Origin: Escherichia phage phi456
DNA: 64,000 bases
Strand: one strand, 5' to 3'
Sequence record: OR339795
Shown here: positions 43,336 through 46,658 of the stretch, in pieces
Numbering within the stretch: position 1 is the first letter of the stretch
Layout: each line of letters opens with the position of its first letter
The notes under the pieces: model-generated
What the model was told of the DNA's origin: nothing
Databases searched by the model: none
What the model saw: the letters and a program-made list of their open reading frames with translations, nothing else
Position numbers and translations under genes: made by a program

Positions 43336-43362
43336 TTGTGTACACATAACGAGTACACGAGG
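43336..43362 (+). promoter_or_regulatory. phd-doc promoter/operator
   Basis: Palindromic gtgtacac and gagtacac half-sites immediately upstream of phd. Confidence 0.6.
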
Positions 43363-43367
43363 TGTTT

Positions 43368-43589
43368 ATGCAATCCATTAACTTCCGTACCGCGCGTGGC
43401 AACCTTTCTGAAGTGCTCAACAATGTTGAAGCCGGGGAAGAGGTTGAAATCACCCGCAGAGGCCGTGAGCCAGCAGTAATTGTCAGCAAGGCTACTTTCG
43501 AAGCCTACAAAAAAGCGGCGCTGGATGCTGAATTTGCATCCCTGTTTGACACCCTGGACTCCACCAACAAGGAACTGGTTAACCGATAA
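43368..43589 (+). CDS. phd: Phd antitoxin
   Basis: 73 aa [39 protein letters not shown]..., recognised as P1 Phd. Confidence 0.9.
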
Positions 43590-43969
43590 TGAGGCATATA
43601 TCACCGGAAGAACTTATTGCGCTTCATGATGCGAATATAAACCGCTACGGCGGCCTGCCGGGCATGTCAGATCCGGGTAGGGCAGAGGCCATTATCGGGA
43701 GAGTTCAGGCCAGAGTTGCCTACGAAGAGATCACCGACCTTTTCGAAGTCTCCGCCACCTACCTGGTGGCTACAGCGAGAGGGCATATATTCAATGATGC
43801 CAATAAGCGTACCGCGCTAAACAGTGCGCTGTTATTTCTACGCCGTAACGGGGTGCAGGTATTTGATTCACCTGAACTGGCAGACCTTACCGTAGGGGCT
43901 GCGACCGGAGAGATATCTGTATCTTCTGTCGCCGACACGTTACGTAGATTGTATGGTTCTGCGGAGTAG
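43589..43969 (+). CDS. doc: Doc toxin (Fic-fold kinase)
   Basis: 126 aa; start overlaps the phd stop; [11 protein letters not shown] motif. Confidence 0.9.
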
Positions 43970-43973
43970 ATTA

Positions 43974-44153
43974 ATGGCACGCAAATACAACAAATTGTCC
44001 CGTGAAGCGTTAAAGATGCTTCTTGATGGCGTGAGTCGCCGCAAGGTAAAGCAATACCTGGTTGGTAAGCAAATTGGTGCCAGGACAGCTATTGCTGTGT
44101 TATGCCGTCAGGAAATGGTTGTGCTTAAACAGATAATGCCGGGCAGCAGATAA
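43974..44153 (+). CDS. small post-doc protein (pdcA position)
   Basis: 59 aa from ATG at 43974 after GGAG; named by position only. Confidence 0.4.
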   Translation: MARKYNKLSREALKMLLDGVSRRKVKQYLVGKQIGARTAIAVLCRQEMVVLKQIMPGSR

Positions 44154-44180
44154 AGCCCAATCAGTGATTAAAGGTGTGAT

Positions 44181-44648
44181 GTGAAAGCCGTAATTACTCC
44201 CTTTGTACAGAAAGAGCTTGGCCTCGCCACGTTCAAAGTGGATCAGGAGGTCCGAAAGCTGGTGGAGGCTGGCCGTAAATTTATTATGGAGCCGGTGCCG
44301 CGTGAGTTAATCGAGCACATGGAAGACGGCCTCGTTGTTACCGAGCAAACCATGGCAACAAATGAGGCGTTGCAGCCGTTTTTTAACAGCGATGAACTGT
44401 TTCGCCGTATTGGTGGAATTGACGCGCTGGTGGCGTGGTTGCGCAGGAAAGAGGGGCAATGCCAGGCCGCAGATCGTAGCTGGTGTGACAACCATATTGT
44501 CCACGCAGAACGAGACAATAGCGCGGTGTTGTTGTGCTGGCATCACGATAACCATTACCGGATGCGTGGTTTTAATGAGCTGAAAGAAACGCTGCATAAT
44601 AATCGCGTTAACTGGATACTGGATGTCGCCCGTCAGGAAATGGGGTAA
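44181..44648 (+). CDS. post-doc protein (pdcB position), 3' end running into IS1
   Basis: 155 aa; the stop codon lies inside the IS1 terminus, so the native C-terminus may be lost. Confidence 0.4.
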
Positions 44649-44658
44649 TGACTCCAAC

Positions 44659-45162
44659 TTACTGATAGTGTTTTATGTTCAGATAATGCCCGATGACCTT
44701 GTCATGCAGCTCCACCGATTTTGAGAACGACAGTGACTTCCGTCCCAGCCTTGCCAGATGTTGTCTCAGATTCAGATTATGTCGCTCAATGCGCTGAGTG
44801 TAACGCTTGCTGATAACGTGCAGCTTTCCCTTCAGGCGTGATTCATACAGCGGCCAGCCATCCGTCATCCATACCACGACCTCAAAGGCCGACAGCAGGC
44901 TCAGAAGACGCGCCAGTGTGGCCAGAGTGCGTTCACCGAAAACGTGCGCCACAACTGTCCTCCGTATCCTGTCATACGCGTAAAACAGCCAGCGCTGACG
45001 TGATTTAGCACCGACGTAGCCCCACTGTTCGTCCATTTCCGCGCAGACAATCACATCACTGCCCGGTTGTATGCGCGAGGTTACCGACTGCGGCCTGAGT
45101 TTTTTAAGTGACGTAAAACCGTGTTGAGGCCAACGCCCATAATGCGGGCAGTTGCCCGGCAT
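44659..45162 (-). CDS. insB: IS1 InsB (variant)
   Basis: 167 aa. Confidence 0.85.
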
Positions 45163-45356
45163 CCAACGCCATTCATGGCCATATCAATGATTTTCTGGTG
45201 CGTACCGGGTTGAGAAGCGGTGTAAGTGAACTGCAGTTGCCATGTTTTACGGCAGTGAGAGCAGAGATAGCGCTGATGTCCGGCAGTGCTTTTGCCGTTA
45301 CGTACCACGCCTTCAGTAGCGGAGCAGGAAGGACATCTGATGGAAATGGAAGCCAT
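45081..45356 (-). CDS. insA: IS1 InsA (variant)
   Basis: 91 aa. Confidence 0.85.
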
Positions 45357-45411
45357 GCAAGCACCTTAAAATCACCATCATACACTAAATCAGTAAGTTG
45401 GCAGCATTACC

Positions 45412-45774
45412 CAGAAAGCCCACCAGCTAAATCAGCAGCTGGTGGCCGCCGCTTCTAAAGTCGATTTTGCCGACCGGGTATCAGTAGCTAAAGGGATCCT
45501 GATTGGGAATTTTGCAAAGGTCGTTGGACTTAAACAAAATGCGCTGTTTGCCTGGTTACGGGAGAACGGCATTCTGATAGCGTCCGGAGGCCGTAAAAAT
45601 GTACCGTTCCAGCAGTACATCAACGCGGGGTATTTCACGGTGAAAGAAGTGGTGCTGGATGATGAAGATGGCTACCAGATACGGTTGACGCCTCAATTAA
45701 CGGGTAAAGGCCAGCAGTGGTTGACGCGTAAACTGCTCGATGCTGGCTTGTTAAAACCGGTGGCGGCTGAATAA
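45412..45774 (+). pseudogene. 3' fragment of an antirepressor-like gene (ANT C-domain), 5'-truncated at IS1
   Basis: Encodes ...KVDFADRVSVAKGILIGNFAKVVGLKQN...GYFTVKEVVLDDEDGYQIRLTPQLTGKGQQWLTRKLLDAGLLKPVAAE; about 85 percent nucleotide identity to the ant1 3' end by eye. Confidence 0.7.
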
Positions 45775-45781
45775 TGGAAGA

Positions 45782-45803
45782 ATGCCCGGTTGATGCCGGG
45801 CAT
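45782..45803. terminator. bidirectional terminator hairpin between the ant-like fragment and c1
   Basis: atgcccgg-ttgatg-ccgggcat hairpin followed by T-rich sequence. Confidence 0.55.
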
Positions 45804-45806
45804 AAT

Positions 45807-46658
45807 TTATTGCGCGCTTTCGGGGTTGTCGTTTACTGGCTGCCCCTTCTTGGTTTTACGGCTGCGCGTAACTGATGCGGCTGACTTAACCTTTTTCTCT
45901 TCGCGAGTGATGGCAATTTGTTTTTTTACATTTTCAATATCTGCCAGGCGATATATTTTTGCTTGCGGCCAGCGGTCGCAGATGATCGGTTCTATGGAGT
46001 CATAAAGGCTAAATTTTGCTTTTTCGAATTCACCGTTGATGATAATTCCATCACGGAGAGTTTCATCGCAGATAAACACGCCACACAGTGGCACATGGTA
46101 ACTAACTGATTTACCATCATTGTAGTTAGGGCTACTGGAAATGTAGTGGACGCGCAGCATTGTTTCGCTAAAGCCGTGTACGCGCATACGGAATTTTTCA
46201 TCCTCCGGGTACTGCTTCATTAGCTCTTTTGTTGCTTCCAGGTTCTCTATGTATTTCGCACTGTGCTCATTGATCCCCGCGCTTTTTTGGATGCGAATGT
46301 CCTTATCAATCAGATGAATAATGCGGCCAGCGGTCATGTTGACGCTGTTCACAGCTTCTGTCTGATAAGTTGTAACCTTACGCACACCGCGAAGGATGTT
46401 AGGCACTGGATATAAAATAGTCTTTGGGATATTGAGGTCTGGGTACTGTTCCAGTTCCCGCGCCATTAAAGTCCATTTATCAATTTCAGCCTGAATGCTG
46501 TCAGTTTCTTTGAACGGTAGAACGACAACCGGGCGTACAGGACGACCGTCGCTGGCTGTATCAACGTGTTGGGCGCGTGCAACAGCTTTTTTTAGAAAGA
46601 GATCCCTGAAGCTGACGAACTCCTGGTACAGTTGTTCGCCGTAGACATAATTTATCAT
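45807..46658 (-). CDS. c1: C1 repressor of lysis
   Basis: 283 aa starting MINYVYGEQLYQEFVSFRDLFLKKAVARAQ, recognised as P1 C1; coi directly upstream. Confidence 0.85.
   Translation of the reverse strand: MINYVYGEQLYQEFVSFRDLFLKKAVARAQHVDTASDGRPVRPVVVLPFKETDSIQAEIDKWTLMARELEQYPDLNIPKTILYPVPNILRGVRKVTTYQTEAVNSVNMTAGRIIHLIDKDIRIQKSAGINEHSAKYIENLEATKELMKQYPEDEKFRMRVHGFSETMLRVHYISSSPNYNDGKSVSYHVPLCGVFICDETLRDGIIINGEFEKAKFSLYDSIEPIICDRWPQAKIYRLADIENVKKQIAITREEKKVKSAASVTRSRKTKKGQPVNDNPESAQ

Follow-up and report, generated by a model that had tools for sequence, protein, structure and literature searches.

The phd-doc to c1 junction

The region examined here lies in the record of Escherichia phage phi456 (OR339795), of which one stretch of 64,000 nucleotides (the window) was analysed; here, the phd-doc genes of a P1-like element are connected to the primary repressor gene c1 through an insertion sequence (IS), IS1, and a fragment of an antirepressor-like gene, ant. 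On the plus strand, the antitoxin gene phd (43368-43589), the toxin gene doc (43589-43969) and pdcA (43974-44153) are intact and align by tblastn over their full length with the respective P1 proteins (73 of 73 amino acids at 100% identity for Phd, 126 of 126 at 99% for Doc, 59 of 59 at 98% for PdcA). As homology to P1 begins at 43292, i.e. 77 bp upstream of phd (blastn), and the promoter Pphd is annotated in P1, the Pphd region is kept in the window. The Phd-Doc module comprises adjacent, overlapping and full-length phd and doc genes together with this promoter region, and the corresponding products of relatives carry the Pfam domains PhdYeFM_antitox and Fic.

The following gene, pdcB (plus strand, 44181-44645, or 44648 with the stop codon), is a pseudogene that covers residues 1-155 of 347 at 99% identity (tblastn). 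Its stop codon TAA (44646-44648) is provided by the terminal repeat of the adjoining IS1, the remnant yields no Pfam match, and RefSeq annotates the same open reading frame (ORF) in plasmid pEC17CM13_2 as a pseudogene with a missing C-terminus. The IS1 copy itself is complete (768 bp, minus strand, 44644-45411), with both terminal repeats (GGTAATGACTCC... and ...GGCAGCATTACC) and open insB (44659-45162) and insA (45081-45356) frames on the minus strand. It represents a divergent isoform with approximately 92% identity to the four other IS1 copies of the window, which holds at least five, and to the IS1 of P1. Because the nine nucleotides on its left (AGGAAATGG) differ from those on its right (CAGAAAGCC), there is no target-site duplication at the junction, as a preliminary description of this DNA had already stated for the run of pdcB into IS1. 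In contrast, the IS1 at 29783-30550 is flanked by a clean 9-bp duplication, GGCTGAAGG. The junction thereby fuses codon 155 of pdcB, via IS1, to nucleotide 754 of ant.

The ant remnant (plus strand, 45412-45774) corresponds to approximately amino acids 252-371 of 371 and matches the ant gene of the P1-like phage-plasmid RCS47 (FO818745.1) from nucleotide 754 on; RCS47 is the best phage match for the right half of the region. Its 110-amino-acid ORF matches only the Pfam domain ANT/KilAC (E = 4.7e-30), whereas the intact 371-amino-acid Ant of RCS47 consists of ORF6N and ANT/KilAC; ORF6N is gone from the remnant in the window. A promoter scan of the plus strand upstream of the remnant revealed nothing above shuffled expectation, RefSeq labels the remnant a pseudogene in a relative, and we regard it as a probably silent pseudogene. 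Between this remnant and the convergent c1 gene sits a GC-rich, terminator-like hairpin (45782-45803; 9-bp stem with six GC pairs, T-rich tail). The c1 gene (minus strand, 45807-46658) is intact and encodes a protein of 283 amino acids with the same sequence as RCS47 C1 and two substitutions relative to P1 c1.100; it is accompanied by an intact coi gene for the C1 inactivator (minus strand, 46769-46978; 69 of 69 amino acids, 97% identity to P1 Coi). The 5'-truncated antirepressor-like gene convergent with c1 that the preliminary description had noticed is thus real and consists of the KilAC part only.

The same description had presented the ant-like fragment as an oddity with respect to P1, and in this it was mistaken, as RCS47-type relatives carry ant natively at this position. 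An ash-icd-ant module lies between pacB and c1 in RCS47 and in plasmids of 267 of the 5,426 complete E. coli genomes (counted when at least 80% of the pacB-ash-icd-ant-c1 segment was present). The occurrence of such relatives had been named beforehand as a finding that would speak against a loss of packaging; they exist, and packaging is still not rescued by them. A foreign origin of the fragment, or its derivation from a duplicate of the immI gene ant1, was considered and rejected, as it shows 85% identity to P1 ant1 versus 96-99% to the RCS47 gene. Since the latter match occurs at exactly the same position, the comparison identifies the fragment as the surviving 3' end of the native gene. 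From ant nucleotide 754 onward, window positions 45412-48245 are 99% identical to RCS47. The first 200 bp of the remnant next to IS1 (45412-45611) contain eight substitutions relative to RCS47 and NZ_CP101016.1; over these 200 bp the identity amounts to 96% for the window and 99.5% for NZ_CP101016.1. Further along, imcA is interrupted by an IS5 (minus strand, 47096-48300) at the site that in RCS47 holds the IS5-flanked dmsABC cargo, which places the region with the RCS47-type lineage. At this site the window has a single IS5, while RCS47 has an IS5-IS1-dmsABC-IS5 composite, and the transposase gene of the window's IS5 is split into ORFs of 157 and 163 amino acids; the same truncated ORF occurs in draft relatives.

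Absence of lpa, pacA and pacB and further lesions

All gene absences reported below refer to the 64-kb window unless complete plasmids are named. When 92 P1 proteins were compared with the whole window by tblastn, approximately 45 of them were matched, while Lpa, PacA and PacB gave no match anywhere, and the P1 DNA from Olpa to pacB had no blastn match in the window. The pac site is absent from the window as well: the 200-bp pac region yields only random 10-13-mers, and TGATC[AG] hexamers reach a maximum of three per 170 bp versus eight in the P1 pac site. These searches bear out the preliminary observation that no late-activator or terminase-like ORF is visible in the window, and the gene order phd-doc-pdcA-pdcB-lpa-pacA-pacB-c1, which the preliminary description had given for P1, is correct according to the P1 annotation. 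Projected onto RCS47 (positions as in locus L001), the left flank extends to L001:6785 within pdcB and the right flank resumes at L001:12001 within ant, both in the same orientation, with IS1 standing in place of 5,215 bp of RCS47-type sequence. Lost with this segment are 60% of pdcB at its 3' end, the lpa promoter together with its C1 operator, the lpa gene, LPpac (a late promoter), pacA including the pac site, pacB, the ash-icd genes and two thirds of ant.

The preliminary description had proposed a search of the complete replicon for these genes. Such a search was carried out on three plasmids of complete sequence in which the junction is identical, namely pHFQ1 (120.8 kb), MS14386 plasmid 2 (123 kb) and pEC17CM13_2 (97.3 kb), and although all P1 proteins were screened, lpa, pacA and pacB were found nowhere on any of them. 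As the window is only part of the replicon, it is these plasmids that argue for an absence of the genes from the remainder. pEC17CM13_2 is the nearest relative of the window, with long stretches of 99.4-99.96% identity, and judged by synteny with it, the replicon beyond the window probably holds the darB-prt-pro-lyz-...-sit-pmgB block, in which the tail-fibre genes are degraded and a terminase is lacking.

The scar at pdcB is one of several inactivating lesions. Missing from the window is also an uninterrupted stretch of P1 genes that extends from ppfA/upfB to pmgL and measures 17 kb in P1; this block contains dmt, transfer RNA genes, tciABC, ban, dbn and gp5, 6, 24, 7, 25 and 26, thus including baseplate and tail-tube genes, and its syntenic position is between upfA and pmgM. 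The block is likewise absent from pHFQ1, MS14386 plasmid 2 and pEC17CM13_2, and simBC, rlfAB, pmgF and pmgT are also missing from the window (tblastn); this tally of morphogenetic genes extends to the window only, and the prt-to-pmgB block is situated beyond it. Without the baseplate and tail-tube genes and ban at their locus, the element would be unable to build a baseplate, and the presence of pacAB would not make it viable as a phage. The preliminary description had suggested a plasmid-locked P1 derivative that cannot package DNA. The absence of lpa, the pac genes and the pac site from the window and its relatives agrees with this proposal, but the scar is not the sole lesion, and the state of the element is neither unique nor new.

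At the border of the missing block, a pmgM remnant (plus strand, 29739-30824) starts at codon 90 and is split further by the IS1 at 29783-30550. The window, pHFQ1, MS14386 plasmid 2 and pEC17CM13_2 share this break to the nucleotide (AGGGAAACG...), with the end of an IS3-family element abutting it. The IncY plasmid pTetA_020022 has the same pmgM breakpoint, but there an IS903-like end abuts. We therefore rejected this shared breakpoint as proof that the baseplate genes were lost before lpa-pac: because the same break adjoins different IS ends in IncY and non-IncY plasmids, the order of the lesions can only be deduced indirectly. The gap is filled with cargo rich in IS1, IS3 and IS30 that includes an autotransporter and an AraC-type regulator. 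Within it, the outer flanks of two IS1 copies (23534-24301 and 28498-29265) are reverse complements of each other (TTAATTGCC and GGCAATTAA), and the segment 23534-28497, with the gene for the 1,165-amino-acid autotransporter (24503-28000), is inverted relative to pEC17CM13_2, so that the rearrangement of 23534-29265 looks like an IS1-mediated inversion.

Lpa is the activator of all P1 late promoters. From established P1 biology, no late promoter would fire without it, and without PacA, PacB and pac neither pac cleavage nor processive headful packaging would take place. As pac is gone, even a helper P1 would not be able to package the element specifically. The P1-type maintenance and immunity set, in contrast to these functions, is present in the window (rep/par, cre-lox, c1-coi, immI and phd-doc), with tblastn identities to P1 of 100% for Cre, 100% over the aligned part for C1, 97% for Icd and 90% for Ant1. 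The retained genes would serve plasmid persistence, with post-segregational killing by Phd-Doc, dimer resolution by Cre-lox, and replication and partition by rep/par, while C1 and Coi would keep residual C1-controlled kilA and repL, both intact in the window (4387-6059), silent. From this gene content we infer that the lineage is at present propagated as a plasmid only.

A type I restriction-modification system adjoins phd, of which hsdR (35957-39073) and hsdM (41629-43191) are open. The hsdS gene, an unbroken gene of 1,239 bp in relatives, is interrupted by an IS5 (40212-41415) into pieces at 39195-40265 and 41342-41632, and because of this split the system is probably inactive. A type III restriction-modification system (52120-56996) occupies the position of P1 res/mod, with res (970 amino acids) and mod (653 amino acids) both open and an EcoP15I-type C-terminal domain in mod.

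Origin of the deletion

Two further plasmids, p1-H9 (NZ_CP029181.1) and NZ_CP101016.1, carry the same IS1 isoform (99.0-99.3% identity) in the same orientation between pdcA/pdcB and c1. In p1-H9, IS1 replaces only 204 bp (L001 7242-7445), which correspond to the 3' end of pdcB and the Olpa/Plpa interval of P1, and the plasmid keeps lpa, pacB, ash, icd and ant as well as pacA, the latter with a frameshift (locus 4757-7252 examined); in this plasmid, the lpa-pac module appears to have been disabled stepwise before any deletion of it. NZ_CP101016.1 shares its right junction with the window, while its left junction lies further out, in pdcA (L001 6184). The three deletions in p1-H9, the window and NZ_CP101016.1 are strictly nested. 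A right junction that stays fixed while the left one varies is typical of adjacent deletion proceeding from a single end of an IS.

Taken together, the retained intact IS, the lack of a target-site duplication, flanks that are collinear with non-adjacent positions of RCS47, the fixed end and the growing nested deletions point to a single insertion and then a succession of IS1 adjacent deletions, and we consider it highly probable that a P1-like phage-plasmid of RCS47-type ancestry has decayed and bears here the scar of a deletion, formed by insertion of IS1 and subsequent IS1-associated deletion. This ancestor would have carried phd-doc-pdcA-pdcB-lpa-pacA(pac)-pacB-ash-icd-ant-c1 on a non-IncY (p0111-like) P1 replicon. 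An IS1 of the divergent isoform would then have inserted near the pdcB/lpa boundary and the flanking DNA would have been removed in successive steps, leaving a single IS1 without target duplication that links pdcB codon 155 to ant nucleotide 754.

Several points weigh against this scenario. No precursor with a simple IS1 insertion and a 9-bp duplication was found among the relatives, and the transition from the p1-H9 state to that of the window requires a change on both sides of IS1, so that independent events or a recombination of two IS1 copies may have contributed. Furthermore, about 30 kb of the replicon, approximately one third, lie outside the window, where a relocated lpa-pacAB copy is conceivable, and the phenotype with regard to induction and particle formation is predicted from genes.

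The most serious competitor to deletion by the transposase is a recombination route, in which two IS1 copies of the same isoform were present in direct orientation at pdcB codon 155 and ant nucleotide 754 and RecA-dependent recombination between them excised 5.2 kb, with one hybrid IS1 left behind. A single IS1 without target-site duplication is equally expected from this process (PMC11708052), the replicon is rich in IS1 copies, and neither junction of the window is present in p1-H9. In contrast, no relative was found that has this isoform at one of the two junctions with the other side intact; the records with one junction are further deleted (NZ_CP101016.1) or carry IS1 elsewhere (p1-H9). 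The remaining IS1 copies of the window are just about 92% identical to the one at the junction, and the fixed right with the variable left junction points to adjacent deletion. Both routes leave the same sequence and are therefore not distinguished by it, and we judge the recombination route to be rather unlikely, albeit deserving of serious consideration.

Far less credible is a displacement of lpa-pacA-pacB, for example by IS1-mediated inversion or translocation, into the third of the replicon beyond the window with the packaging capacity kept. Such a rearrangement has a parallel in the inverted segment 23534-28497, but the three complete plasmids with the same junction lack the genes, the segment of pEC17CM13_2 that corresponds to the outlying part runs from darB to pmgB without a terminase, and a displaced pacAB would still face the missing baseplate, tail-tube and ban genes. 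A false join across repeated IS1 sequences during assembly is practically inconceivable, even though repeats such as the five or more IS1 copies of the window often lead to misassembly: with about 92% identity to the other copies, the isoform at the junction is too distinct to be confused with them, and the identical two-sided junction recurs in 12 complete genomes that are independent of one another and differ in country and host, as well as in many draft and metagenome contigs, which together exclude an artefact. The preferred explanation is thus still that of an IS1 insertion that grew into a deletion by steps.

Loss of this module is recurrent among P1-derived plasmids. In the IncY plasmid pTetA_020022, codon 3 of lpa is joined to codon 374 of pacB with a 4-bp overlap and without any IS, and in pPK5074-91kb, a compound deletion has left lpa next to 74 bp of pacB, which are followed by the 3' end of ant; phd-doc and c1-coi are kept in both. 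The idea that plasmids with pdcB close to c1 form a functional lineage with lpa-pacAB elsewhere was rejected, as pTetA_020022 is itself degraded, with no more of pacB left than its last 121 codons. Together with the IS1 series (promoter deletion and pacA frameshift in p1-H9, the window and NZ_CP101016.1), these plasmids provide at least four independent lpa-pacAB lesions. It is a tentative thought, and one we would at present rather doubt than defend, that lpa-pacAB is a preferred and repeatedly struck target after commitment to plasmid life, owing to positive selection to disarm the phage and not to neutral decay. If true, disarming late transcription and pac cutting would avoid the lethal cost of accidental derepression, and a resident IS1 would act as a one-way deletion ratchet.

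Replicon type, distribution and comparison with known systems

The maintenance module of the window (12356-16761) encodes RepA, ParA and ParB proteins with 42%, 58% and 43% identity to those of P1, and its par and rep genes are separated by a T5orf172/GIY-YIG-like gene (14739-15548). The low identities of RepA and ParA mark the replicon as non-IncY, and on the basis of these comparisons the module is assigned to an alternative replicon of P1-like elements, for which the name p0111-like can be inferred from PMC9603915 and PMC10879196.

PLSDB contains approximately nine plasmids in which the junction aligns as a single piece, and an equally unbroken alignment was obtained for 12 of the 5,426 complete E. 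coli genomes; the sources of these 12 include humans, chickens and sheep, among others. Dozens of draft assemblies have the double junction as well. The ORF of 155 amino acids formed by PdcB' and IS1 was found in 72 blocks of a public assembly index, including many draft and metagenome contigs. The pdcB'-IS1-'ant junction is thus not a one-off but marks a circulating sub-lineage. In one assembly (GCA_037038005.1, contig ABQOUF010000064.1), the fusion ORF lies downstream of a humD-type (Peptidase_S24) gene and not of hsdM, so that the scar there has moved into, or recombined with, a backbone with the P1-type left flank.

For practical purposes, an automated call of "P1-like phage-plasmid" may fit an element that is in fact a non-packaging plasmid, and the spread of its cargo would be limited to vertical transmission, mobilisation and rare generalised transduction. 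The junction may serve as a handy marker of the defective lineage, by polymerase chain reaction or in silico, and the nested IS1 deletions offer a concrete natural example of a phage-plasmid that is whittled into a plasmid.

A class of such elements has been described by Pfeifer and Rocha in 2024 (PMC10879196), who reported 38 P1-derived defective plasmids, 28 of them p0111, in which the phage cycle cannot be completed and which are often rich in resistance genes and mobilisable. Judged by its gene content, the window is a member of this class: many P1 families are kept, essential phage functions are missing and the replicon is of P1 type. What characterises a functional Punavirus, i.e. Lpa with its promoter, PacA and PacB with pac, and a complete morphogenetic set, is lacking.

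Among individual elements, pHFQ1, MS14386 plasmid 2 and pEC17CM13_2 agree with the window in the pdcB'-IS1-'ant-c1 junction, the pmgM break at codon 90, the non-IncY rep/par genes, the lack of lpa, pacAB and the dmt-to-gp26 block, and the IS-rich cargo. However, the window is identical to no relative, the best coverage being 81-85% in PLSDB and complete RefSeq E. coli genomes. Compared with pHFQ1 and MS14386 plasmid 2, the window has preserved additional P1 genes (tub, pmgC, icd-ant1-kilA-repL and a nearly full darB), and it differs from pEC17CM13_2 by extra IS5 insertions, located in hsdS, and by the inverted cargo segment.

RCS47 represents the undeleted counterpart. It shares with the window the segment 45412-48245 at 99% identity (ant 3' end, c1, coi, imcB and the IS5 in imcA) and phd-doc-pdcA-pdcB at 98%, and both the C1 protein and the IS5 site in imcA are identical. 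Unlike the window, RCS47 has a full pdcB, lpa, pacA, pacB and the whole ant gene of 371 amino acids, carries humD-hot upstream of phd instead of the type I restriction-modification system, and harbours dmsABC between two IS5 copies. P1 itself (NC_005856) has the order phd-doc-pdcA-pdcB...c1-coi-imcB-imcA-lox-cre in common with the window, with 95-99% nucleotide identity over the retained parts; in P1, however, c1 follows directly after lpa-pacA-pacB without an ant module, whereas the window is devoid of the 3.3-kb lpa-pac block.

With regard to mechanism, adjacent deletions without target-site duplications, often small at first and then growing, have been reported for IS1, IS903 and IS150 (PMC11708052). 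Although the process in the window, unlike in those cases, is deduced from natural variants, the correspondence extends to the intact IS, the lack of a target-site duplication, the collinear flanks, the one fixed end and the growth of the deletion.

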